Assembly: GCA_963788925.1 (NCBI GenBank)
Contig: CAWBIH010000002.1
Location: forward strand, 503,752 to 567,751
Reading direction: 5' to 3'
DNA: 64,000 bases
Source: an uncultured Actinomycetota bacterium
GTDB taxonomy: Bacteria > Actinomycetota > UBA4738 > HRBIN12
A model generated the notes under the pieces. It was not told the origin of the DNA, did no database searches, and was given only the letters and a program-made list of their open reading frames with translations. Of this stretch, positions 6,349-61,928 are shown piece after piece. Both the position numbers and the translations under genes were made by a program. The first letter of the stretch is position 1; the number at the start of each line of letters is the position of its first letter.

Positions 6349-8382
6349 TCACTCGGCCCACAGGCCGGCGAGGAATGCGTCGACGTCCGCCGCAGCGGTG
6401 AAGGCTGCTCCGTCGTCCGGGACCGCCACGACCTGCGGCGCGATGACGTCGAAGTGTTCGAGGACCTCGTCCGGGAGGAATCGGGACCGCTGCGAATACG
6501 AATGCGGGTCCTCGAGTCCTCTCGGCCTGCGGTAGTAGCGCTGGGGATAGGTCACGTGGAGCGCGTCGCGCGCACGGGTGAGCGCCACGTAGAGCAGCCG
6601 CCGCTCTTCCTCGATCTCGTCGTCGTTTCCCGTCGACATGTCCGAGGGGATCATCCCGTCGGCCGCGTGGATGACGTGCACGACGTCCCACTCGAGGCCC
6701 TTCGCCGAATGGATCGTCGAGAGGATCAGGTAGTCCTCGTCCAGGTGGGGCGGGCCCGCGAGGTCGCCGGTCGACGAGGGTGGATCGAGCGTGAGATCGG
6801 CGAGGAACTGTCCTCGCGACCCGGCCTCGGAGGCGAGGAGCTCGAGCTGTTCGAGGTCGCGCACCCGCGATGCGGCCGCCTCGTACTTCCTCGCGATGAC
6901 GGGCTCGAGGAACGTCCTGAGCCGGGCGAGCTGGCCGGCGGGCGGGAGCACGTCGGCGTCGAGACAGTCGTCGAGCGCCGCGCGAAGGTCGCGGATGCCT
7001 TGCGCCGCGCCCTTCGGCACGGCGATCGGCTCCTCGAGGAACCTTGCGAGCGGTGACGCCGCGTCCGCGGCGTCACCGCGACGCACTCCGAGCTCGTCCA
7101 TGAGCCGCCGCGACGAGGCCGGGCCCATCCCGTCCAAGAGCTGCAGCACCCGGAACCAGCTGACCTCGTCGAAGGGGTTCTCCAGGATCCGCAGGCACGC
7201 GAGCGCGTCCTTCACGTGAGCGGCCTCCATGAACTTCAGGCCTCCGTACTTGATGAACGGGATGTTCCGGCGAGCGAGCTCGACCTCGAGGTGATCCGAG
7301 TGGTAGGCCGCGCGGAACAGGACCGCCTGCGCTTTCAGCGGGACGCCCTCCTCGCGATGTTCCAAGACCGCCCGGCAGACGGCGTCGCTCTGCTCGGCTT
7401 CATCGAGACACGCCCTCACGATCGGCCGTGAGTCGCCCGGCCGGGTCGGTTGAAGGGTCTTCTCGTGACGTTGCGGGCTGAGCGCGATCACCGCGTTCGA
7501 TGCCGCCAGGATCGGCGGTGTCGACCGGTAGTTCCGTTCGAGCTTGATCAAGGCCGCGCCCGGGAACCGGTCGGGGAACTCGAGGATGTTCTTCACGGTC
7601 GCGGCGCGGAACCCGTAGATCGCCTGCGCGTCGTCGCCGACGACGGTGAGGTTCCTCGGGCCGGCTGCAGGCCGCATCCCTTCGAGGATGTCGGCCTGCA
7701 ACGCGTTCGTGTCCTGGTACTCGTCGACGAGGATGTGCTCGAACATCGCGGCGAGCTGCTGAGAGGTTGCAGGTGAGGTGGCGAGCGCCTTCCAGAACAA
7801 CAACAGGTCGTCGTAGTCGAGGACGTGCTGCTGCCGCTTGCGTTCCGTGTAGGCGCGGAAGATCTCCCGGATCCCCTCGGCCTCCTCGAGGCACCACGGG
7901 TAATGGCGCTTCAGGACGTCGGCGAGCCGTTCACCCGCGTTCACGGTCCGCGAGTAGATCGCCGCGAGCGTGTCCTTGCGAGGGAATCGGCGCTCGCGGG
8001 CTGAGTATCCGAGCTCGTCGCGGAGCAGGTTCATCACGTCGGCGCCGTCGGCCTGGTCGAGGACGGTGAAGTCGGGGGTGAGGCCGAGCGCGCGACCATG
8101 GAGGCGGAGGAGCCGATTCCCGATCGCGTGGAACGTGCCGCCCCAGACGCGGCCGGTGTCGCTCGTGCCCAGGCGCGCCGCTCGTGAGACCATCTCGCGA
8201 GCGGCGCGCCTGCTGAACGTGAGGAGCAGGATGCGCTCCGGGCGCGTCCCTCGTTCGATGAGGGACGCGACACGCGCCGCCAACGTCATGGTCTTCCCGC
8301 TCCCGGCCCCGGCGACGATCAGCAGCGGCCCCTCGCCATGGCGAACGGCCGCCTGCTGCTCCGGATTCAGCTCCTCGAACAC
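6349..8382 (-). CDS. ATP-dependent DNA helicase, UvrD/PcrA/Rep family
   Basis: Walker A (AGAGSGKT) near the N-terminus and helicase motifs throughout. The ORF-track N-terminal 188 aa extension overlaps the CDGSH gene and is rejected; start is placed at the in-frame GTG (codon 8382-8380) just before FEELNPEQQ. Confidence 0.8.
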   Translation of the reverse strand: MFEELNPEQQAAVRHGEGPLLIVAGAGSGKTMTLAARVASLIERGTRPERILLLTFSRRAAREMVSRAARLGTSDTGRVWGGTFHAIGNRLLRLHGRALGLTPDFTVLDQADGADVMNLLRDELGYSARERRFPRKDTLAAIYSRTVNAGERLADVLKRHYPWCLEEAEGIREIFRAYTERKRQQHVLDYDDLLLFWKALATSPATSQQLAAMFEHILVDEYQDTNALQADILEGMRPAAGPRNLTVVGDDAQAIYGFRAATVKNILEFPDRFPGAALIKLERNYRSTPPILAASNAVIALSPQRHEKTLQPTRPGDSRPIVRACLDEAEQSDAVCRAVLEHREEGVPLKAQAVLFRAAYHSDHLEVELARRNIPFIKYGGLKFMEAAHVKDALACLRILENPFDEVSWFRVLQLLDGMGPASSRRLMDELGVRRGDAADAASPLARFLEEPIAVPKGAAQGIRDLRAALDDCLDADVLPPAGQLARLRTFLEPVIARKYEAAASRVRDLEQLELLASEAGSRGQFLADLTLDPPSSTGDLAGPPHLDEDYLILSTIHSAKGLEWDVVHVIHAADGMIPSDMSTGNDDEIEEERRLLYVALTRARDALHVTYPQRYYRRPRGLEDPHSYSQRSRFLPDEVLEHFDVIAPQVVAVPDDGAAFTAAADVDAFLAGLWAE

Positions 8383-8460
8383 GCGTTCGGAGGATAGTGC
8401 GCCGGGGTGACCGAATCGAGGACCCTTGTTCGCTCTCCCCTTCTCCGTCTTCGTGGGAGG

Positions 8461-9141
8461 ATGCCCCTCATGTCGGAGGCGGAGATCCACGTCGAGGAGA
8501 ACGGTCCGTACCAGGTGACCGGCCCGCTCCCGATCGCTCGCACTCGACAGGTGAAGACCGAGTTCGGCGAGCCCGTCGACTACGCGCCCTTCGAGCCGCT
8601 CGAGGCGGGAGAGTCCTACCGGCTCTGCCGGTGCGGCAAGAGCGCGAACAAGCCGTTCTGCGACGACAGTCACCTCGAGGAACCCCGCGTCGACGTCACG
8701 GAACGAGCGGATCACGGTCCTCGCGACGACAGGGCTGATGTCTTCCAATCGACGCATGACGGAGCAGTCATCAGCGACGACCTTTCGATCTGTACGAAGG
8801 CCGGCTACTGCAAGGACCGGTTCACGGGCGTCTGGCAGATGCTCGGGAACGCGGATCCTGCCGTCCGCGAACGCATGGGTCGGATGGTCGAGCTCTGCCC
8901 GTCGGGCCGGCTCGCGTGGGCCGACTCGGTCGACGCGCCGGATCACGAGCCGGAGTACGAGCCCGAGATCGGCGTGTTCAGGAACGGGCCGCTCTTCGTG
9001 CGCGGCGGTGTCCGAGTCGTGGGGGCGGACGGCGAGCCGTACGAGGTCCGGAACCGGCAGACCCTCTGCCGATGCGGCTATTCGCAGAACAAGCCGTTCT
9101 GCGACGGCTCACATTCCCGCGTCGGCTTCCGCGACGGCTGA
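8461..9141 (+). CDS. CDGSH iron-sulfur domain protein (two CDGSH motifs)
   Basis: Two copies of the C-x-C-x2-(S/T)-x3-P-x-C-D-G-S-H signature (CRCGKSANKPFCDDSH and CRCGYSQNKPFCDGSH). Divergent from the helicase across a 78-nt spacer. Confidence 0.85.
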   Translation: MPLMSEAEIHVEENGPYQVTGPLPIARTRQVKTEFGEPVDYAPFEPLEAGESYRLCRCGKSANKPFCDDSHLEEPRVDVTERADHGPRDDRADVFQSTHDGAVISDDLSICTKAGYCKDRFTGVWQMLGNADPAVRERMGRMVELCPSGRLAWADSVDAPDHEPEYEPEIGVFRNGPLFVRGGVRVVGADGEPYEVRNRQTLCRCGYSQNKPFCDGSHSRVGFRDG

Positions 9142-9144
9142 GCC

Positions 9145-9660
9145 TTAGGCCCGAACGAGCCCCAGCTCTTCGAGGAGTCCGGGCGGGATCGCGTGGCAGT
9201 ACGGCTCGTGCCCGTTGTTCAGGTAGTAGCGCTGGTGGTACTCCTCGGCCGGATAGAACGCGACGTGCGGACGGATCTCCGTCGCGATCGGCGTGGAGTA
9301 GCGGGCCTGCGCCCGATCGCGTGAGGCCTCGGCGGCCATCCGCTGCTCATCCGAGTGCGTGAGGACGATGCTCCGGTATTGCGACCCGCGATCCGGACCC
9401 TGGCGGTTCACCTGCGTCGGGTCGTGCATCGCCCAGAAGACCTCGAGCAGTTGGTCGAAGGAAACGACCTCGGGGTCGAACGTCACCTCGACGACCTCGG
9501 CGTGCCCGGTGGTGTCGCTGCAGACCTGTGCATACGTGGGGTTCTCGACGATCCCGCCGCTGTAGCCGGAGACGGCGTCGATCACACCGGGGACCCTGCG
9601 GAAGAGGTGCTCGACGCCCCAGAAGCAGCCGGCGCCGAAGGTTGCGGTCTCGGATGGCAT
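9145..9660 (-). CDS. msrA: peptide methionine sulfoxide reductase MsrA
   Basis: 171 aa with the MsrA active-site motif GCFWG near the N-terminus. Confidence 0.9.
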   Translation of the reverse strand: MPSETATFGAGCFWGVEHLFRRVPGVIDAVSGYSGGIVENPTYAQVCSDTTGHAEVVEVTFDPEVVSFDQLLEVFWAMHDPTQVNRQGPDRGSQYRSIVLTHSDEQRMAAEASRDRAQARYSTPIATEIRPHVAFYPAEEYHQRYYLNNGHEPYCHAIPPGLLEELGLVRA

Positions 9661-9853
9661 GTCGTTCTTCCTTTCCGAAAGAGTCGGTCATCCCATAGTG
9701 CCAGCCTTCGGCCCTTCCGTTGCACCGTCCCATCCCGCAGAAGTCGTAGTTCGCCCGGGGAAGCTCGAAATGGTCCTCTTCGCCGATACTCCCGTACGCG
9801 CGAGTACCCGATATCAGGTAGAGCAAGGGGAGAGGCACCGAGGAGGAGAGCAC

Positions 9854-10294
9854 ATGCGACAGTGGGAGCTCATCGGTATCACCGACACGGTCGACTGGAC
9901 GCCGCCTCGCCGTGAGGCCGCGCCCGCCGAGGACGAGGGGCACCTGCCGGCGGTCATGTGGACCACGGATGGATCGCTCCGTCTGAGAGGGGTCTCCTGG
10001 GCAGCCTCCCAGCACCTGGGGATCCACCCTCGATTCCTTGACGGGCGGGAGCTGCTCGATGCGTTCGGGATGGAAGGGGAGAACCTCCCGATCCTCGAAG
10101 CCCACGCGGCCGCGTTGACGGGGAAGACGGTCACGTTCAGCCTCCGAGGGGTCGAGGGGCGGATGTGGTGCCGCGTCGCGCCAACCCACGACGCGGGCGA
10201 GCACATCGTGGGGACGTTCTGCATCGCAACCGAGCCGGCGTCCGACGGCGACGAGCCGGTGGCCGCGCAGGAGACCACCCTCACGCTGGTGTGA
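9854..10294 (+). CDS. hypothetical protein (small PAS-like)
   Basis: 146 aa ORF with a strong RBS (GAGGAGGAGAG) 5 nt upstream of the ATG. No recognisable motif. Confidence 0.5.
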   Translation: MRQWELIGITDTVDWTPPRREAAPAEDEGHLPAVMWTTDGSLRLRGVSWAASQHLGIHPRFLDGRELLDAFGMEGENLPILEAHAAALTGKTVTFSLRGVEGRMWCRVAPTHDAGEHIVGTFCIATEPASDGDEPVAAQETTLTLV

Positions 10295-19593: not shown

Positions 19594-19682
19594 GGAGACG
19601 TGGCTGAGTGGCCGAAAGCAGCCGCCTGCTAAGCGGTTAGGGGGGTAAAACTCCCTCGGAGGTTCGAATCCTCCCGTCTCCG
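19594..19682 (+). tRNA. tRNA-Ser (anticodon GCU)
   Basis: 89-nt cloverleaf folded by hand. 7-bp acceptor stem GGAGACG/CGTCTCC, anticodon loop CUGCUAA, long variable arm, T-loop GGTTCGAATCC. TAGACT -10-like hexamer about 10 nt upstream. Confidence 0.85.
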
Positions 19683-19844
19683 CGGGCGCTTCTCCGGAGA
19701 TACTGTTGCGCGCTGTGGCATCAAAACTCGCGCACCTTCCGTGCTGGATAGAGAGGGTTTGGGTGTCAGCGGTGGATTGATAACGCAACCCAGCCCCTCG
19801 ATAATCGAAGTCGCGGGCCGTTCGGGCCCCGCCCGAGGGAGACC

Positions 19845-22009: not shown

Positions 22010-22083
22010 GCGCCCTTAGCTCAGTGGATCAGAGCGGCTGGCTACGGACCAGCAGGTCGGGGGTTCGAGTCCCTCAGGGCGCG
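22010..22083 (+). tRNA. tRNA-Arg (anticodon ACG)
   Basis: 74-nt cloverleaf. Acceptor GCGCCCT/AGGGCGC, D-stem GCTC/GAGC, anticodon stem GCTGG/CCAGC with loop CUACGGA, T-arm GGGGG-TTCGAGT-CCCTC. Confidence 0.8.
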
Positions 22084-22489
22084 CTTCCGAAGACAGGATC
22101 GTGAAGGATCGCTTCTAGTCGCGACTGAGTGCGTGTCGGTACGCAGGCGGCGCGTGGAGCCAGCAGACGGGAGAAGCGTTGTACGTGGAAAGGATCGTCT
22201 CGCATCCGATCTGTTCGCACATCCGTCCTCGAGCGGGACGGTCTGCCGCCTTCTTCCCGCGATCGGGCGGTCCGAACACTCGATCCTTGCGACTGACGCC
22301 CTCCACTCGGCCTCCCTGTTTCGTCGTGGATCATCGGATCCGAGGGGGCAGGGCGGGCGGGTGGTCTGCCGATGCCTCCGGTCGGTTGCCCGACGCGGCG
22401 GAGTTTCGATCGCTCGGGACCTCAACGATAGCACGGCGGCTCGACGGCCCGCTCGGTCGAGGAGCTGTGCACGCCCTGGAGAACCTCTG

Positions 22490-34231: not shown

Positions 34232-34321
34232 GGAGGCGTGCCGGAGCGGACGAACGGGACCGCCTCGAAAGCGGTTAGGGGCCTAATCCGCCCCTCGCGT
34301 GTTCGAATCACGCCGCCTCCG
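34232..34321 (+). tRNA. tRNA-Ser (anticodon CGA), CCA encoded
   Basis: Acceptor GGAGGCG/CGCCTCC, anticodon loop CUCGAAA, long variable arm, T-loop TTCGAATC, 3' GCCA. TAGACT hexamer about 8 nt upstream. Confidence 0.85.
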
Positions 34322-34371
34322 CCATCGGGCGGGCCCTTCGATGGGCCCGCCCCAGTCGGTACCCTCCGTAG

Positions 34372-34948: not shown

Positions 34949-35036
34949 GGTGGCCTGCCCGAGCGGCCGAAGGGACACGCCTGGAAAGCGTGTAGGGGGG
35001 TTGACTCCCTCGAGGGTTCGAATCCCTCGGCCACCG
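34949..35036 (+). tRNA. tRNA-Ser (anticodon GGA)
   Basis: Acceptor GGTGGCC/GGCCACC, anticodon loop CUGGAAA, long variable arm, T-loop TTCGAATCC. TAGACT hexamer upstream. Confidence 0.85.
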
Positions 35037-35046
35037 CTCCCACCGC

Positions 35047-37840: not shown

Positions 37841-38106
37841 ACCGTGCTAGGCGGGGAGCTAGCGGTGCCCTGTACCCGCGATCCGCTTCAGCGGGGCTGA
37901 ATCCCCGCCCGAGGCCCGCGAGGTCCGAAGCGCCCCGGTACGAAGCGTCGAAGGTCGGGTCCCACGCGACGCCGGAACGCGAACCGGGTCAGGTCCGGAA
38001 GGAAGCAGCCCTAAGCGTGAACCGGCGGGTGCCGTGGGCCAGCCCGGCTGGAGCTCCGCTGCCGGGTAGCGGTCGAGTCTCGCGGCGTCGACGGCGGGTG
38101 CACGGT
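37841..38106 (+). ncRNA. ffs: signal recognition particle RNA, long (Bacillus-type) form with Alu domain
   Basis: Near-identity to the B. subtilis scRNA 5' Alu region (GUGCUA-GCGGGGAG-UAGCGGUGCCCUGUACC-GC-AUCCGCU). Universal domain-IV motif GUCAGGUCCGGAAGGAAGCAGCC at 37990-38012. The 3' end GGUGCACGGU is followed by a T5 run. TATACT -10 box about 10 nt upstream. Confidence 0.85.
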
Positions 38107-51175: not shown

Positions 51176-52384
51176 ATGGCGCTGGCGCTCGAGTTCTATC
51201 GTTCCGCGCCGAAGTACCTCGGGGCGCGGACGCTCGGCTCGAAGGCACCCGGGCTACTGACCGGTGGGCTCGCTCCGCTCAGGCTCGTGACCCAGAAGGA
51301 CCCGGAACCGAAGCGCGAGGGGTGGGCGCGCGTCAAGCCCCGGCTCTCCGGGATCTGTGGGAGCGACCTCTCCACGATCTCGGGGAGGTCGTCGTTCTAC
51401 TTCTCGCCGCTCGTCTCACTGCCGTTCGTGCCCGGCCACGAGGTCGTCGGCGAGCTCCTCGATGACGTCGGCGACCTCGTGGCCGGGCAACGGGTCGTGA
51501 TCTCGAGCGTCCTCGGTTGCGCGGCACGGGGCGAGGAGCCTCCGTGTGAGCATTGCGCTTCGGGTCAGGTCGGCCGTTGCGACCGGGTGACGGTGGGACA
51601 TCTGAAGCCCGGGCTCCAGACCGGCTATTGCACCGAGACCGGGGGCGGATGGAGCCGACTGATGCTCGCCCATCGGTCACAGCTGTGGCCGGTCCCCGAC
51701 GGGATGAGCGATCAGACCGCGGTCCTCATCGAGCCGTTCGCCTGCGCGATCCACGCGGCCTTCCGCGCCGAGATCCCTGCGGGGGGAACCGTGCACATCG
51801 TCGGCGCCGGCACGGTCGGCATCCTCACGTTGATCGCGATCAAGGCTCTCACGAAAGCCGATCACGTCGTCGTGGCAGCGAAGCACCAGCGTCAGCGCGC
51901 CGCCGCGACGATGGCCGGCGCCGACGACGTCGTGCGTCCGGAGCATGCCGTGAAGGCGGTTCGCCGGACCGATCACGCGGTGAAGCTCACCCCGGAGCGC
52001 GGGATGGACTTCCTCCTCGGGGGAGTCGACGTGGCGATCGAGTGCACGGGGTCGAGCAGCGCGCTCGACCTTGCGCTGAGGACGACGAAGGCAGGGGGCC
52101 GTGTCGTCGTCTCGGGCATCCCGGGCGGTGGCGCCGATCTCACCCCGTTGTGGTTCCGCGAGCTCGAGCTCGCGGGTGCCTACACGTCGGGCGTCGAGGA
52201 CCTCGGGAAGGGCGTCACGCGCCCGACGTTCGAGATCGCGATGGATCTCGCTTCGAACCTGCCCATGCTCGAGCAACTCGTGGGCGCGACCTACCCCCTC
52301 GACCGCTGGCGCGAGGCACTCGATCACGCGATGGCAGCCGGCACGCTCGGTACCTTCAAAGTGGCGTTCGCGCCGCAGGCCTAG
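51176..52384 (+). CDS. zinc-dependent alcohol dehydrogenase (MDR superfamily)
   Basis: Catalytic zinc ligands in GICGSDL...GHEVVGEL, a structural-zinc Cys cluster (CAARGEEPPCEHC...C), and NAD motif VHIVGAGTVGIL. ATG sits 7 nt after the preceding stop. Confidence 0.85.
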   Translation: MALALEFYRSAPKYLGARTLGSKAPGLLTGGLAPLRLVTQKDPEPKREGWARVKPRLSGICGSDLSTISGRSSFYFSPLVSLPFVPGHEVVGELLDDVGDLVAGQRVVISSVLGCAARGEEPPCEHCASGQVGRCDRVTVGHLKPGLQTGYCTETGGGWSRLMLAHRSQLWPVPDGMSDQTAVLIEPFACAIHAAFRAEIPAGGTVHIVGAGTVGILTLIAIKALTKADHVVVAAKHQRQRAAATMAGADDVVRPEHAVKAVRRTDHAVKLTPERGMDFLLGGVDVAIECTGSSSALDLALRTTKAGGRVVVSGIPGGGADLTPLWFRELELAGAYTSGVEDLGKGVTRPTFEIAMDLASNLPMLEQLVGATYPLDRWREALDHAMAAGTLGTFKVAFAPQA

Positions 52385-52416
52385 GAAACACGAACGAGGA
52401 CAGGAGAGACGAACAC

Positions 52417-54006
52417 ATGCCCAGACCCGGATTCGTGTTGGAGGTGGATGAACGGACGCCCCCGCTCCTGATCCATGAGGGCGAGGGCTTCCGCATGCAG
52501 AAGTTCCCGCTCGGCACCCGGGTCGTGTACCCACCGGATGCCCTCCCTGGGATCCGAGACGTCAACGCGGCGATCCGCCACGCCCTGCTCAACCCCACGG
52601 GAGACTCGCAGCCGCTTCCGGACCTGCTCAAGGCCGGGATGAAGCTGACGATCGCGGTGGACGACATCTCGATCCCCTTGCCGCCGATGACGCGCCCCGA
52701 TATCCGTCAGCGGATCCTCGAGCAGGTGATCGAGCTGGCGGCGCGCAGCGGGGTCGAGGACGTGCAGATCGTGGTCGCGACCGCCCTTCACCGGCGGATG
52801 ACCGCCGACGAGATCCGCCGGATGGTCGGGGAGCGGGTCTTCCGTTCGTTCTGGCCCAAGGACCTCTACAACTTCGACGGCGAGGACAAGGACGCGCTGA
52901 CGCTCATCGGGACCACCGACGAGCACGAGGACGTCGAGATCTCCAAGCGCGCCGCGGAGTCGGACCTTCTCGTCTACATCAACGTCAACCTGGTCGCGAT
53001 GGACGGGGGGCACAAGTCGGTCGCGATCGGCCTCGCCGGATACCGCTCGCTCCGACATCACCACAACGTCGAGACGATGATGCACTCGCGGTCCTACATG
53101 GACCCGAGGCCCGGGCATAGTGCGATCGCCGACTCCGCCACCCGGATGGGCCGGTTGATCGCCGCCAACGGACTCAAGATCTTCCAGATCGAGACCACCT
53201 TGAACGCGGAGACGTTCCCGAAGAACCTCGGCTTCCTGAACAAGCGAGAGTGGGAGTGGTCCGCGTACGACCAGGGGCTCATGATGGCGGCCCGGAAGGC
53301 GAATCAGATGGCGCCACCGCGGATGCGCCGAGAGTTCTACAAGCGGGTCGAGGCTCCCTACAAGCTCACGGGGGTCAGCGCGGGCGAGGTGGAGGCCGTC
53401 CACGACCGGACCCTCGAGAACCTGCACCGGCAACAGCTGGTCGAGGTCCGGGGACAGTCCGACGTGCTCGTGCTCGGACTTCCCTACATCAGCCCCTACA
53501 ACGTCAACTCGATCATGAACCCGATCCTGGTCCACTGCCTCGGGCTCGGCTACCTCTTCAACATGTACCGGAACATGCCGCTGGTGAAGCCGGGCGGCGT
53601 CGTGATCATGTACCACCCGGTTCCGTGGGAGTTCCATCAGATCCATCACCCCTCGTACATCGACTTCTTCGAAGAGGTGCTGGCGGAGACCACCGACCCG
53701 TCCACGATCGAATCGAAGTACGAAGAGCGATATGCGACCGACCCCTGGTACACGCACCTGTACCGGACGTCGCACGCGTACCACGGCGTGCATCCCTTCT
53801 ACATGTGGTACTGGGGAGCGCACGGGCGCGACCACGCCGGCGACGTGATCTTCGTCGGCGGAGAGCCGAAGTCCGTCGCGCGCCTCGGGTATCGCGCCGC
53901 CGGATCGTTCCGCGACGCATTGGAGATGGCGAAGGACACCGTCGGGTCCTCCCCGACGATCACGTACTTCCACGCCCCGCCGATCATGATCGCCGACGTG
54001 GTGTGA
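52417..54006 (+). CDS. LarA-like (DUF2088) nickel-pincer-type hydroxy-acid racemase/epimerase family protein
   Basis: 529 aa. DUF2088 N-domain (KLTIAVDDISIP...) and a GGHKS block matching the LarA Gly-Gly-x-Lys-Ser cofactor-lysine loop. His-rich region RSLRHHHN. RBS GAGGACAGGAGAG. Confidence 0.7.
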   Translation: MPRPGFVLEVDERTPPLLIHEGEGFRMQKFPLGTRVVYPPDALPGIRDVNAAIRHALLNPTGDSQPLPDLLKAGMKLTIAVDDISIPLPPMTRPDIRQRILEQVIELAARSGVEDVQIVVATALHRRMTADEIRRMVGERVFRSFWPKDLYNFDGEDKDALTLIGTTDEHEDVEISKRAAESDLLVYINVNLVAMDGGHKSVAIGLAGYRSLRHHHNVETMMHSRSYMDPRPGHSAIADSATRMGRLIAANGLKIFQIETTLNAETFPKNLGFLNKREWEWSAYDQGLMMAARKANQMAPPRMRREFYKRVEAPYKLTGVSAGEVEAVHDRTLENLHRQQLVEVRGQSDVLVLGLPYISPYNVNSIMNPILVHCLGLGYLFNMYRNMPLVKPGGVVIMYHPVPWEFHQIHHPSYIDFFEEVLAETTDPSTIESKYEERYATDPWYTHLYRTSHAYHGVHPFYMWYWGAHGRDHAGDVIFVGGEPKSVARLGYRAAGSFRDALEMAKDTVGSSPTITYFHAPPIMIADVV

Positions 54007-55580: not shown

Positions 55581-56270
55581 TCACGCCAGTGCCCAGAAAG
55601 GTCCCGTGAGCCCGATCCCGTCGAAGATCGCCTGTGCCTCCTCCGGCGTCTTCCGTCGCCAGTCCGGTGAGAGACGATCCCCGAACCATCGCGTCGCGAG
55701 CTGCCATCCCTGCTGGGGCGTGAGGGTCGAGCCGATCTCGGTCCGCCGTTCCTCGGTCCACCTCGTCACGTGCTCTTCCGACCGGAAGAGGAGCATGCTC
55801 GCTCAGGTGGAACCGATGTCGTCCCACCAGCGCGCGGCCGGCACGGCGAAATGGATGACGCCGCCTGCGGACGGTTCGAGCGCCCCGTCTCGGATGTCGA
55901 GCGAGAGCGGCTCGGAGCAGTCGGGGCAGTAGGTTCGGATGCGCGCGTCGGCGTGCAAGCACGCGGGGATCCCGAGTGCGTCCCAGACGCAATTGCCGAA
56001 GTAGCGACGGTCGGCGACCTCGACCTCGAAGGGTGTCGGGATCGCCGAGAACGGGTTCGCCATCCAGATGTAGGGCGTCCCCGGGGCGAGGACGAGGACG
56101 TGGCCCTCCGAGAGCCGTCGAAGGGAGGCCTCGACATCCCGGGCGGCGATCCCGAGCTCGACCGCCATCTCGGGCGCCGTGGGAGGTCGTCCGTCCTCCA
56201 CGATCCTCCGGTACACGGTAAGGCGGACGTCCCGGTCGAGGGTCGAGGCGTCGCCGGAAGAGGCGACCAT
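55581..56270 (-). CDS. organomercurial (alkylmercury) lyase MerB-family protein with an in-frame TGA at the position of catalytic Cys159 (candidate selenocysteine codon, or a nonsense lesion)
   Basis: Aligns along its length with MerB (FEVEVADRRYFGNCVWDALGIPA matches [21 protein letters not shown] with Cys96/Asp99). C-terminus ...DDIGST-TGA-ASMLLFRSEEH matches ...RQSFC(159)CHVHFFAS. Codon 55805-55803 is TGA. A hairpin CTCTTCC-GGTC-GGAAGAG begins 11 nt downstream. Confidence 0.6.
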
Positions 56271-56276
56271 GCGGTC

Positions 56277-56879
56277 CTAGGAGTAGAACTCGACGACGAG
56301 GCGCTCTTCCAGGGTCACCGGGAGCGGGATCTCGTCGCGTTCCGGGATCCGCGTGAACGAGCCCTTGATCTCGTCCTTGTTGCGGTAGAGGTAGGCCGGC
56401 GGATCGGGCGTGATCTGGATCGCTTCACGCACCAAGATGAAGTTCCGCGCCTTCTCGGTGAGGCCGATCTCCTGGCCCGGCTTCACCTGCGCGCTCGGAA
56501 CGTCGATCCGCTTGCCGTCGATGAGCACGTGGCCGTGGGACACGAGCTGCCGGGCCTGGTGGATCGTGAGAGCGAACCCCAGACGTAGGATCACCGCATC
56601 GATCCGGGTCTCCAGCTGCTTGAGCAGCTCCTCGCCGGTCACGCCCATCGAACGGTGCGCGCGCTCGTAGTACTTGCGCATCTGCCGCTCGCCCACCGCG
56701 TAGATCGCCCGCATCTTCTGCTTCTCCACCAGCCGGGTCTGATACTCCGAGATCCGCTTGCGGCCTCGGCCGTGCATGCCGGGTGGGTAGGGCCGCTTGT
56801 TGGCAGGACAATTGGGGCGCCCACATAAGGGGGCGCCCACACGTCTGCACATGCGGTGCTTGGGTCCGATCTTGTCCAT
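56277..56879 (-). CDS. rpsD: 30S ribosomal protein S4
   Basis: 200 aa. MDKIGPKHRMCRRVGAPLCG zinc-ribbon-like N-terminus and S4 RNA-binding domain. Start coordinate is uncertain by 1 nt. Confidence 0.85.
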   Translation of the reverse strand: MDKIGPKHRMCRRVGAPLCGRPNCPANKRPYPPGMHGRGRKRISEYQTRLVEKQKMRAIYAVGERQMRKYYERAHRSMGVTGEELLKQLETRIDAVILRLGFALTIHQARQLVSHGHVLIDGKRIDVPSAQVKPGQEIGLTEKARNFILVREAIQITPDPPAYLYRNKDEIKGSFTRIPERDEIPLPVTLEERLVVEFYS

Positions 56880-56921
56880 CGAGGCCAGCCAGGCTACCAG
56901 AGGCCCTCGGCGGGAATCGTG

Positions 56922-57848
56922 TCGATAGGCTTCGAACCCGTGGATGACCTGCGGGAACGGGTGGTGGGGTGCGTTCTCGGGCTGGCGCTCGGGGACGCGC
57001 TCGGGGCGCCGTTCGAGTTCCGTCGGCGCAGCGAGATCCCCGATCCGCTGCCGGCGTTCGAGAAGAGCTGGATGGGGCTCGCGCCCGGTCAGTGGACCGA
57101 CGACACCGCGATGGCGCGCAACCTCTGCCGCTCGCTCACGGAGCGCGGTCGGCTGGACACGGACGACGTGCTGCAGCGGCACCTGGACTGGTTGGCCACC
57201 GATCCGCCGGATGTCGGGACCCTCACGCGACGCGTGCTCGGGGGCATCCGGGACGGAGTCCCGGATGCGGCGGAGCGATACGTGTCGGAACGAGGGCCGG
57301 AGGTCTCGGCCGGGAACGGCTCCGTGATGTACTGCGCGCCGCTCGGAGCTTTCCGAGCGGCGCGCGCGGAGCTGCTCGTCGAGGATGCGCCTGCGCTCTC
57401 CGCGATCACGCACTGGGACGAGCGTTGCCGCACCGCGTGCCTGGCCGTGACGCTCGCGGTCGCGGCGCTGGTGCGGGGAGAGGCGCATCGGGAGGCGGTC
57501 GAGAGAGCGGTGGGGACCGTGATCGACCGGGAGGGAGGAGAGGAGCTCGAGTACCTCGTGGCGGAGGCGGGGCGAGCGAGACCCCTCGATGGTCCCGACA
57601 TGGGCTTCACGCTGTTCACCGCCGGGATCGGGCTCCAGGCGGCGGCCGAGGGCATGCCCCTCGATGAAGGCTTGCGGTACGTCGTGGCGCTCGGTGGCGA
57701 CACCGACACGAACGCGGCCGTGACGGGTGGGTTGCTCGGCGCCCTTCACGGCCGGGCAGCGCTCCCGGGCGCCTGGCTGGAGAAGTTGGTGGATCGCCGG
57801 GCGATCGAAGCGGAAGCCGAGGCGCTGGCTGGCGCGGCGACCGCCTAG
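56922..57848 (+). CDS. ADP-ribosylglycohydrolase family protein
   Basis: ARH motifs (GCVLGLALGDALGAPFEF...GQWTDDTAMA...GGDTDTNAAVTGGLLGA). A start downstream of the ORF-track ATG is chosen to avoid a 24-nt overlap with rpsD. Confidence 0.75.
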   Translation, partial: SIGFEPVDDLRERVVGCVLGLALGDALGAPFEFRRRSEIPDPLPAFEKSWMGLAPGQWTDDTAMARNLCRSLTERGRLDTDDVLQRHLDWLATDPPDVGTLTRRVLGGIRDGVPDAAERYVSERGPEVSAGNGSVMYCAPLGAFRAARAELLVEDAPALSAITHWDERCRTACLAVTLAVAALVRGEAHREAVERAVGTVIDREGGEELEYLVAEAGRARPLDGPDMGFTLFTAGIGLQAAAEGMPLDEGLRYVVALGGDTDTNAAVTGGLLGALHGRAALPGAWLEKLVDRRAIEAEAEALAGAATA

Positions 57849-58057
57849 GAGGCGGTCGCCGCGCCCACCCCCGGCACGTACTCGTCGCCGATCCTGCGCA
57901 CGACGTCGATGGCTTCGAGATCGGACATCACCCTGATGGCATCGCCGATCGACAAGCCGAACCGGCCGGCGACCTCGTCGAGGGTCCACACCGCGGAGGG
58001 ATCCGAGAAGACCTTCGCGATCGCATCTCCGCTGCCGTCGTTCGGGCGCATCGGCAT
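57845..58057 (-). CDS. hypothetical small protein (70 aa)
   Basis: Near-consensus RBS GAGGAGG 7 nt upstream of the ATG. Stop overlaps the end of the ADP-ribosylglycohydrolase gene. No known motif. Confidence 0.45.
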   Translation of the reverse strand: MPMRPNDGSGDAIAKVFSDPSAVWTLDEVAGRFGLSIGDAIRVMSDLEAIDVVRRIGDEYVPGVGAATAS

Positions 58058-58234
58058 CCTCCTCGGTCGTAGTGTCTTTCGGACTCCCGACGGTCACCAG
58101 GGGTTCCCGGCAACCTTCCCGAGTTCTTCATCCGTCGTTCATCGATGCCTTGGAGCAGTTGGCGTGTGACTGGCGTAACGCGAGGGAGGGAACGCGATAC
58201 GGTCGGGGAACCGAGCGAGCCGGGAGGTCGCAGC

Positions 58235-59461
58235 ATGGCGGAGACTCTGGTCTACGGCGCGAGCTGGTGCCCCGATTGCCGACGCGCGAAGAAGTTCCTG
58301 GCGGATCAGCGCGTGGGCTACGAGTGGCACGACATCGAGAGCGAGCCGGAGGGCGCGAAGGTGGTTCGGGATCGGAACGACGGGAAGAACATCATCCCCA
58401 CGGTCATCTTCCCCGATGGCACGCATCTCTCCGAGCCCTCGAACGAGGAGCTGGCGGAGAAGCTCGGCCTCCAACGACAGGCGATGCAGCACGTCTACGA
58501 CCTGATCATCGTGGGTGGCGGGCCGACCGGTCTGACGACCGCGATCTATGCGGCGCGCGAGAACCTCGAGACGCTGATCATCGATTCGAAGGGCCTTGGC
58601 GGTCAGGCGGGGGTGACGGAGCGACTCGACAACTACCCCGGGTTCCCCGAGGGGATCGCCGGAGCCGAGCTCGCCGACCGCTTCGTCAAGCAGGCCGAGC
58701 GGTACGGGGTCGAGATGCTGCAGGCCGTATCCGTCACGAGCATCTCGGCGGACTCGGGCATGACCGCCGACGGCGACGAGCTCGATATCGCGACCGCGAC
58801 CGGTGACCATTACCACGCACGAGCGGCGCTGGTCGCGACCGGATCTTCTTACCGGCGAACGAACGCCGAGGGTGAGGACGACCTGATCGGCGCGGGGGTC
58901 CATTTCTGCGCGACCTGCGACGGCCCCTTCTACAAGGGCTCGGACGAGCTGATGGTGATCGGCGGCGGCAACTCCGGCCTCGAGGAGGGCGTCTTCCTGA
59001 CCCAGTTCACGGACAAGGTCACGATCGTTGAGCGAGGCGACCGGCTGCGCGGGTCGAGGATCCTCCAGGACAAGGTCCTCGACCACCCGAGGATGGAGGT
59101 GGAACTGCGACACGGCGTGAAGGAGTTCCGCAAGAAAGAGGACGGTTCCGGCAAGCTCGGGGCCGTCGTGATCGAGGATCTCGAGTCGGGGGAGATCGAG
59201 GAGCACCACCCCGCCGGCGTGTTCGTCTTCATCGGCCTCGATCCGAACACCGACTTCCTGAAGGGGATCGTCGAGCTGGATGAGCGGGGGTTCGTTGCCG
59301 CCGACCCCACCTTCATGAGCTCGATGCCGGGGGTCTTCGCCGCCGGCGACGTGCGGGGTGGGTCGACGAAACAGCTCGCGTCGGCGGTGGGCGAGGGCGC
59401 GGCGGCGGCGATCCAGATCCGCGGCTATCTCGACCGGCTCGAGCAGCGCCGGACGGCGTAG
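58235..59461 (+). CDS. glutaredoxin-like (CPDC thioredoxin-fold) domain fused to thioredoxin-disulfide reductase
   Basis: N-terminal about 80 aa LVYGASWCPDCRRAKKFL (Grx/NrdH-like CxxC). The remainder is TrxR (IIVGGGPTGLTTA FAD motif, redox CATCDG, NADPH motif VIGGGNSGLEEG). RBS GGGAGG. Start at 58235, not the ORF-track 58145. Confidence 0.85.
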   Translation: MAETLVYGASWCPDCRRAKKFLADQRVGYEWHDIESEPEGAKVVRDRNDGKNIIPTVIFPDGTHLSEPSNEELAEKLGLQRQAMQHVYDLIIVGGGPTGLTTAIYAARENLETLIIDSKGLGGQAGVTERLDNYPGFPEGIAGAELADRFVKQAERYGVEMLQAVSVTSISADSGMTADGDELDIATATGDHYHARAALVATGSSYRRTNAEGEDDLIGAGVHFCATCDGPFYKGSDELMVIGGGNSGLEEGVFLTQFTDKVTIVERGDRLRGSRILQDKVLDHPRMEVELRHGVKEFRKKEDGSGKLGAVVIEDLESGEIEEHHPAGVFVFIGLDPNTDFLKGIVELDERGFVAADPTFMSSMPGVFAAGDVRGGSTKQLASAVGEGAAAAIQIRGYLDRLEQRRTA

Positions 59462-61846: not shown

Positions 61847-61854
61847 TATCGGTG

Positions 61855-61928
61855 TCGGGACGGCGGGACTTGAACCCGCGACCTCAGCGTCCCGAACGCT
61901 GCGCGCTACCAAACTGCGCCACGTCCCG
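61855..61928 (-). tRNA. tRNA-Pro (anticodon CGG)
   Basis: Reverse complement folds as acceptor CGGGACG/CGTCCCG, D-stem GCGC/GCGC, anticodon stem CAGCG/CGCTG with loop UUCGGGA, T-arm GCGGG-TTCAAGT-CCCGC. Coordinates plus or minus 1. Confidence 0.8.

Follow-up and report, generated by a model that had tools for sequence, protein, structure and literature searches.

The window analysed here is a 64,000-nucleotide stretch of contig CAWBIH010000002.1 from an uncultured Actinomycetota bacterium. The gene in question is a member of the MerB (organomercurial lyase) family, which lies on the minus strand at 55581-56270 and is interrupted by an in-frame TGA. Two open reading frames (ORFs), 56270-55803 and 55796-55581, cover it. 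Read directly, the first starts with the ATG at 56270 and encodes 155 amino acids up to the internal TGA, beyond which 73 sense codons continue in frame to a terminal TGA; translation with read-through gives a product of 229 amino acids (Table 1). The sequence-only reading of this DNA had taken the two ORFs for one MerB homologue, and the Pfam profile PF03243 (MerB) bears this out. Positions 1-126 of 126 of the profile are matched by residues 74-197 of the single 229-residue frame (110.1 bits, cut-off 27, E=9e-32). As the match runs end to end across the internal TGA, the MerB catalytic domain straddles it. Orthologues have the same start and the same architecture.

Very probably, the two ORFs make up a single intact gene that encodes a PF03243 selenoprotein of 229 residues, with its UGA read by way of a downstream hairpin and a likely MerB-type carbon-metal lyase activity, in a clade separate from the described selenoprotein family SaoL. 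Decoding of UGA156 as selenocysteine (Sec) is predicted with high confidence from the comparisons below, and confidence in the lyase function is lower.

Table 1. Features of the MerB-family selenoprotein gene and its upstream neighbour in the window.
Feature	Position	Strand	Details and basis
Complete coding sequence, predicted MerB-family selenoprotein	55581..56270	-	229 residues including Sec156, plus stop codon; translation, PF03243, orthologues
In-frame UGA, predicted Sec156 codon, equivalent of MerB catalytic Cys159	55803..55805	-	Alignment to MerB and MerB2
SECIS-type hairpin (SECIS, selenocysteine insertion sequence)	55773..55790	-	Arm CUCUUCC 55790-55784, loop GGUC 55783-55780, arm GGAAGAG 55779-55773
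Cys94-Val-Trp96-Asp97 codons	55980..55991	-	Cys94/Asp97 correspond to MerB Cys96/Asp99; HMMER alignment to MerB and MerB2
Cys115-Pro-Asp-Cys118 motif	55917..55928	-	Cys115 aligns with MerB Cys117; Cys118 is additional
True stop codon TGA	55581..55583	-	Direct reading; C-terminus position conserved (...FW.L..) in orthologues
rpsD (ribosomal protein S4), context only	56277..56903	-	Pfam Ribosomal_S4 and S4 domains; ends 6 nt before the start codon

For the read-through product, HMMER ranks MerB2 of Bacillus megaterium (PDB 5C17, E=4.6e-13) first among proteins of solved structure, with the entries for MerB of plasmid R831b next. In these alignments, G-N-C94-V-W-D97 of the window protein corresponds to A-W-C96-A-L-D99 of MerB, and S-T-[TGA] falls on S-F-C159 of MerB and, in MerB2, on the lone Cys (G-G-T-C). 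The TGA therefore stands at the catalytic Cys159 position, where the sequence-only reading had placed it. The conservation of MerB Cys96 and Asp99 claimed there holds too, the residues being Cys94 and Asp97 in the protein's own numbering. Nine residues are invariant in 80 aligned sequences with TGA at this site (Sec forms; the window and 79 loci): Cys94, Trp96, Asp97, His140, Trp148, Trp149, Sec156, Phe162 and Glu165. Cys115 and Cys118 are each 95% conserved in the same alignment.

Conservation of the TGA, the downstream frame and the hairpin

Searched against proteins, the read-through sequence matched more than 100 clusters at 68-93% identity. Nearly all are 150-157 residues long and thus end at the TGA position, and two full-length relatives have 224-225 amino acids. 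At the DNA level, orthologues were compared in 80 species-level genomes in which the N-terminal part is 43-82% identical to that of the window. These genomes belong to Actinomycetota, Gaiellales and other Thermoleophilia, Acidimicrobiia, Acidobacteriota, Chloroflexota, Armatimonadota, Gemmatimonadota, Dormibacterota and Kofleriaceae. A stop occupies the Sec codon in 79 of the 80 loci, and TGA is the only one used there (79/79), with no TAA or TAG. All three stops, in contrast, are used at the ends of these genes (TGA 45, TAG 28, TAA 6). The remaining locus, L009, is frameshifted upstream of the UGA. In this long-read metagenome-assembled genome (MAG), the frameshift of the orthologue (L009:10098-10620) lies shortly before the UGA and is an assembly indel rather than a difference in gene structure. 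A further 80 loci were retrieved from metagenomes with a Cys-form query, and are not biased towards TGA for that reason; the Sec codon is TGA in 79 of them and TGC in one.

Altogether, TGA is found at the Sec codon in 157 orthologous loci besides the window, in at least seven phyla. About 72 codons 3' of the TGA are in frame and conserved (...MLLFRSEEH..W....G......W.LA..W...R....W......E......GL...FW). Judged from the window and its nine closest relatives, the codons downstream of the UGA are under purifying selection, with a ratio of nonsynonymous to synonymous substitution rates (dN/dS) of 0.42, versus 0.27 upstream. Further candidates for in-frame TGA read-through, with a coding signal on either side, were sought in 1.3 Mb of loci, and this gave solely adjacent genes in the same frame.

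Homologues with Cys in place of Sec are also found. The two full-length relatives carry Cys at the Sec column (P0066, ..GYN-C-SKMLLF; P0072, ..GFN-C-ANMLLF), as do P0121 and at least 25 further full-length representatives. An exhaustive search with P0072 covered 1.84 billion cluster representatives (50% identity), of which the best 150 were examined. Around 70 of these are roughly 145-160 amino acids long and end in '...WWDDIxFT', one residue before the Sec column, and 61 have at least 200 amino acids, with Cys at the Sec column in 25 of the 30 whose active-site motif could be located. Going by these alignments, short products that end at the Sec column beside full-length Cys forms are the classical Sec/Cys signature. 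The comparison of orthologues for Cys or TGA suggested by the sequence-only reading thus gives TGA in 79/79 genome loci and 79/80 metagenome loci, and Cys in full-length homologues.

In the DNA of Cys forms the hairpin is absent from five of six genes (for example, CTG CTG TTC CGC TCG GAC GAG). The gene that encodes P0072 (L161:240-917) has TGC and a nearly intact SECIS hairpin (CTCTTCCGGTCGGAAGAC), which suggests either a very recent switch from Sec to Cys or a base error. In two other full-length homologues, P0124 and P0152, the Sec/Cys column is occupied by Trp (..T-W-G/D-T-I..), which may have arisen through a change of TGA to TGG.

The hairpin CUCUUCC-GGUC-GGAAGAG noted from the sequence is present after the TGA. 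Its 7-bp stem begins 12 nt after the A of the UGA, not 11 nt as first given, and 19 nt intervene before the loop, in keeping with the 19-20 nt originally stated. The likeness to the SECIS of Escherichia coli fdhF, the sequence of which was matched with 100% identity in fdhF of 5419 E. coli genomes, holds for the loop and nearly so for the spacing. Both hairpins lie directly downstream of the UGA within coding sequence and have the identical tetraloop GGUC, which falls at nt 23-26 in the window (counting the U of UGA as 1) and at nt 22-25 in fdhF. A difference is that no longer lower stem is evident in the window hairpin.

Stem codons are fixed at their synonymous sites in the 80-sequence codon alignment: Leu is encoded by CTC in 63/63, Arg by CGG in 75/79 and Ser by TCG in 74/77. 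Their entropy is 0-0.33 bits, compared with 1.5-2.1 bits for codons of the same three amino acids in the rest of the gene, where CGC is preferred. The loop is GGUC in 155 of 158 Sec-form sequences. An outcome in which all orthologues had TGC and no hairpin, named beforehand as one that would speak against Sec, is therefore not what was observed. The pair that closes the loop is C-G in 131 of these sequences, U-A in 21 and A-U in two, with four mismatches. The U-A variant couples an Arg-to-Trp change (CGG to TGG) with a synonymous change of Ser from TCG to TCA in 21/21 cases, and the A-U variant combines AGG with TCT in both of its cases. Across 50 distinct hairpin variants, 92.3% of the cells are paired, versus 48-61% for controls with the 3' arm shifted by 1-3 nt, and the covariation score was reached by none of 500 shuffles. 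A short 7-bp GGUC hairpin with such clear compensatory changes would be a clean SECIS example for phyla in which predictors fail. Three loci from Chloroflexota/Dormibacterota (L041, L043 and L064) have a 6-bp stem, CUCUUC/GAAGAG, and 6-nt loops (CGGGGC, CGGGAC and CGUGCC) instead of GGUC, which may reflect a different SelB specificity.

Since UGA recoding by SelB and a SECIS is the standard bacterial pathway, the same mechanism is proposed here. The hairpin 12 nt past UGA156 would present its GGUC loop to SelB carrying Sec-tRNA(Sec), and UGA156 would then be read as Sec instead of as a stop. We infer that the hairpin is recognised by the cognate SelB.

Two other explanations of the internal TGA concern the integrity of the gene. 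An ordinary Cys-type MerB homologue struck by a nonsense mutation, or by a TGC-to-TGA base-calling error, would make the locus a pseudogene or an assembly artefact. The window does resemble a long-read assembly, close relatives such as L168 and L009 carry many frameshifts, and L161 is a close Cys form with TGC in otherwise identical context. This explanation is nevertheless effectively refuted by the comparative data and keeps almost no probability: the same TGA recurs in 157 other independent loci from short-read and long-read assemblies of several phyla, the downstream frame is under purifying selection, and the hairpin covaries and shows constraint at its synonymous sites. The preference of the sequence-only reading for a candidate selenoprotein over a nonsense mutation is upheld by these data and by the Cys homologues. 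A split gene, in which translation stops at the UGA and restarts at an AUG three codons on, is very improbable. It would yield polypeptides of 155 and 71 amino acids without any residue at the Cys159 site. The window does have an ATG 6 nt past the TGA, as do most orthologues (73/80 and 75/78), and gene callers annotate two ORFs. However, 10 orthologues have ATC, ATT or ATA as this codon, where no restart is possible and the frame is nonetheless kept, and Cys forms conserve the Met just as well, which marks it as a residue of the protein. A split gene would moreover not require TGA every time, nor would its stop be expected in register with the Cys of the homologues; it leaves the covarying GGUC hairpin unexplained, and it would forfeit the catalytic residue although Cys94 and Asp97 are invariant. 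The split gene was thus rejected on the orthologues that lack the ATG, the specificity for TGA and the covarying hairpin.

Genes for selenocysteine incorporation

The machinery for Sec incorporation was sought with tblastn, using E. coli SelA, SelB and SelD sequences as queries; those for SelA and SelB were validated by their matches to genes with the Pfam labels SelA, GTP_EFTU and SelB-WH in L168. This contig is 91% identical to, and syntenic with, window positions 64000-58195. It carries selA (7060-8288) and selB (8434-10282), both broken by long-read frameshifts, and after them the genes follow in the order seen in the window (RidA, WhiB, NfeD, PBP, ..., NlpC/P60, sigma factor, zf-HC2 anti-sigma, Grx-TrxR). 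From the synteny with L168, the end of selB is expected about 4.2 kb past the high-coordinate end of the window, and selA and selB are predicted at about 66-70 kb, beyond the window end.

Remnants of selB are also seen beside other orthologues. The edge of L003 (2-289), a contig syntenic with the window, encodes the last 96 residues of SelB (PF09107, SelB-wing_3, 69.7 bits, cut-off 23.2, E=1.5e-19; also a match to positions 538-577 of TIGR00475), 9.7 kb upstream of the L003 orthologue. JGI contig Ga0395782_0004045 (13.8 kb) has a SelB C-terminus together with an orthologue that carries both TGA and hairpin. Among the syntenic relatives with sel genes, the region in L169 is 8-436. The SelB C-terminal domain of this lineage has 89 database relatives (P0271-P0359), every one a fragment of 58-166 amino acids; contig ends and frameshifts appear to cause systematic mis-calling of SelB in these MAGs and metagenomes. 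Sec use has been recorded in deep-branching Actinobacteria (Rubrobacter), Acidobacteria and Chloroflexi (PMC1794560).

Five tRNA genes lie in the window, at 19594-19683, 22010-22084, 34232-34324 and 34949-35037 on the plus strand and at 61854-61928 on the minus strand. Three are for Ser, one for Arg and one for Pro, and none is tRNA-Sec.

Relation to SaoL and MerB, and probable function

The sequence-only reading held that a Sec-containing MerB would be new, and in this it is overtaken by SaoL. SaoL, the 'selenocysteine-assisted organometallic lyase', is a MerB-like protein described in 2022 (NCBIfam NF040728; Haft & Gwadz 2022, bioRxiv 10.1101/2022.07.06.499078), whose Sec162 aligns with MerB Cys159 by structure superposition. 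It marks a nine-gene SAO locus (SaoABP ABC transporter, SaoE, SaoC, SaoT, SaoD), and its hosts, 0.3% of species, are exclusively anaerobic Firmicutes, spirochaetes and Deltaproteobacteria (10.1101/2022.07.06.499078). It is the only MerB-like selenoprotein in two reviews (PMC9312934, PMC13188914), and full-text searches of the openly accessible literature yielded none beyond it.

The gene stands alone on the chromosome, without a mer operon or SAO locus. No conserved mer genes (merA, merR, merT, merP) were found near it. Clustering of neighbours within +/-6.5 kb of the 79 loci and the window gene recovered no conserved transporter, efflux or DsrE-like set, in agreement with Pfam labels of the flanks.

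Much is shared with SaoL: the family PF03243, Sec encoded by an in-frame UGA at the MerB Cys159 position, equivalents of Cys96 and Asp99, a chromosomal location outside a mer operon, and database proteins that are typically truncated at the UGA. Membership in SaoL, which would make the window protein already known, is also hinted at by a weak match to NF040728 (E=2.9e-12), but is very improbable. The match reaches 46.8 bits, far under the curated cut-off of 140, and covers residues 12-141, ending before Sec. SaoL has a C-U dipeptide, whereas the window clade has T-U (Thr in 92%, otherwise Asn, Ser or Ala, and never Cys). SaoL sits in the SAO locus of strict anaerobes, unlike the window clade, which has no SAO transporter, efflux, thioredoxin-like or DsrE-like neighbours and occurs in changing housekeeping contexts in soil phyla (Actinomycetota, Gaiellales, Gemmatimonadota and similar). 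With score, dipeptide, locus and hosts all differing, assignment to SaoL was rejected. The comparison indicates a much more widespread clade of MerB-family selenoproteins that is distinct from SaoL; the variant is new and the principle is known.

By sequence, the window protein has the same fold family as MerB (plasmid R831b; PDB 3F0P, 3F2G, 1S6L) and MerB2 (5C17), with an N-terminal helical domain, a catalytic domain and equivalents of Cys96 and Asp99. As in MerB2, a single residue occupies the Cys159/Cys160 site. It differs from both in having Sec for Cys159, an extra CxxC (Cys115/Cys118) and no mer context, and it scores well below the equivalog models for MerB (50.7 bits vs 193 and 37.6 bits vs 200; NCBIfam NF009710 and NF033555). 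On these scores it is a member of the MerB family and not an equivalog of characterised MerB.

From Sec156 at the Cys159 site and the invariant Cys94 and Asp97, cleavage of a carbon-metal bond therefore seems most likely, by a protonolysis of the MerB type. The selenolate of Sec156 together with Cys94 would hold the metal, and Asp97 would act as proton donor as the carbon-metal bond is cut. The metal need not be mercury: as no mer genes lie nearby, an organomercurial substrate is not necessarily the right one. That the protein is a true selenoprotein and yet not an organomercurial lyase is a serious possibility. It might act on another organometal(loid) or on a carbon-sulfur or carbon-selenium bond, or might bind or sense a metal through its N-terminal winged-helix-like domain. 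The lack of merA, merR, merT and merP nearby, the housekeeping context (rpsD, TetR, acyltransferase), the very broad distribution across soil bacteria, the extra conserved CxxC and the scores under the MerB equivalog cut-offs all point this way, and Haft & Gwadz argue alike in holding the same reservation on an organomercurial substrate for SaoL (10.1101/2022.07.06.499078). On the other side, the catalytic constellation of MerB (Cys94, Asp97 and Sec for Cys159) is invariant and the whole MerB catalytic domain is matched. As a matter of general chemistry, selenolate also has a very high affinity for soft metals.

Several observations weigh against the interpretation of the gene as a hairpin-decoded selenoprotein with MerB-type activity. 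Alone, the window hairpin folds no better than shuffled sequence (minimum free energy -14.6 kcal/mol, z = -1.0), so that its significance comes from comparison with other sequences. Its perfect 7-bp stem lacks the bulged U of fdhF, and Rfam, at gathering and E<=10 thresholds, gives no SECIS or other family at the site. The search for selA, selB, selD and selC proposed by the sequence-only reading succeeded in part. selA and selB are present on the 91%-identical, syntenic L168, and are seen in relatives only and not in the genome of the window. None of selA, selB, selD and tRNA-Sec was found in the 64-kb window (tblastn, ARAGORN, Rfam), and neither tRNA-Sec nor selD was found in any of the 1.5 Mb of fetched loci. 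With merA and merR absent, a classical role in mercury resistance is doubtful. An AlphaFold model of the Cys form P0072, built on a shallow alignment, had a mean pLDDT of 62.8 with less than 50 in the active-site region and was left unused; because of this low confidence, the active-site geometry is drawn from the sequence alignment alone.

The phyla concerned (Gaiellales and other Thermoleophilia, other Actinomycetota, Gemmatimonadota, Acidobacteriota and Chloroflexota) are mostly regarded as aerobic. We tentatively suggest, as a possibility short of probable, that the window gene is the founding example of an unrecognised and very abundant soil family of stand-alone, Sec-using carbon-metal lyases of the MerB type, found in phyla of this kind. 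If true, this would mean methylmercury demethylation, or another organometal cleavage, independent of the mer operon in soils, and would tie selenium availability to mercury cycling. Sec at a MerB-type metal site in genomes without a mer operon is a concrete candidate for mer-independent turnover of organomercurials. According to reviews, selenoproteins are rarely kept by aerobic bacteria (PMC13188914), a view that a family so widespread in soil Actinomycetota, Gemmatimonadota and Acidobacteriota would qualify. The family could usefully indicate which uncultured soil lineages have the Sec trait, and its Sec and Cys forms are a natural pair for probing what selenium contributes to carbon-metal bond cleavage.

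Extent of the family and neighbouring genes

One scan confirmed the family in 203 species-level genomes. More than 442 metagenome stretches carry it, and the Gaiellales/Solirubrobacterales-type fragment by itself matches 6315 clusters at 90% identity. It is thus a large clade in soil Actinomycetota, Acidobacteriota, Chloroflexota, Gemmatimonadota and other phyla; among the matches listed there is no cultured carrier, all being MAGs or metagenome sequences. Members are labelled 'organomercurial lyase' by NCBI at truncated lengths of 147-154 amino acids, from which it follows that the annotation pipeline fails to recognise the family. NCBIfam has no model for it, and the record therefore lacks the catalytic residue along with a third of the protein. 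Thousands of entries of about 147-155 amino acids named 'organomercurial lyase' or 'hypothetical protein' would accordingly be truncated selenoproteins.

On plasmids, tblastn found distant Cys-type homologues alone, of about 32% identity and outside the clade of the window gene. An example is L167:2995-3660, a full-length Cys-type MerB-like gene (~32% identical) on the megaplasmid of Ralstonia pseudosolanacearum GMI1000 (NC_003296.1). It has C-A-W-C in place of the C-x-x-D of MerB and occurs in 97 Ralstonia records; the PLSDB gene table, which is described as incomplete, has no entry for it.

In the window clade, 6 nt separate rpsD from the gene downstream of it, which faces a TetR gene. The adjacency of rpsD and the merB-like gene is also seen in the closest relatives, and co-transcription with rpsD is inferred. 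Besides rpsD and the TetR gene, the neighbourhood in this clade includes genes for an acyltransferase, an ADP-ribosylglycohydrolase and a fusion of glutaredoxin and thioredoxin reductase (Grx-TrxR). Housekeeping neighbours differ in other clades; in Gaiellales-type genomes, the gene lies among pnp, an M16 peptidase gene, dapA and an RNase J gene. The fusion in the window, at 58235-59461 on the plus strand, joins a glutaredoxin to a thioredoxin-reductase-like flavoprotein (Pfam Glutaredoxin and Pyr_redox_2). It stays about 2-3 kb from the merB-like gene throughout the window clade (L168, L169 and L170), and could be a reductant partner of the MerB-like enzyme.

Two ORFs of the window, 51553-54006 on the plus strand and 56277-58097 on the minus strand, are over-extended. 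The real genes are a LarA-like gene (Lar_N, from about 52573) and rpsD, respectively, and the ADP-ribosylglycohydrolase gene (56856-57848, plus strand) lies on the opposite strand inside the over-extended rpsD ORF. At 37842-38105 on the plus strand, the window encodes a large bacterial SRP RNA (Rfam RF01854, 168 bits).

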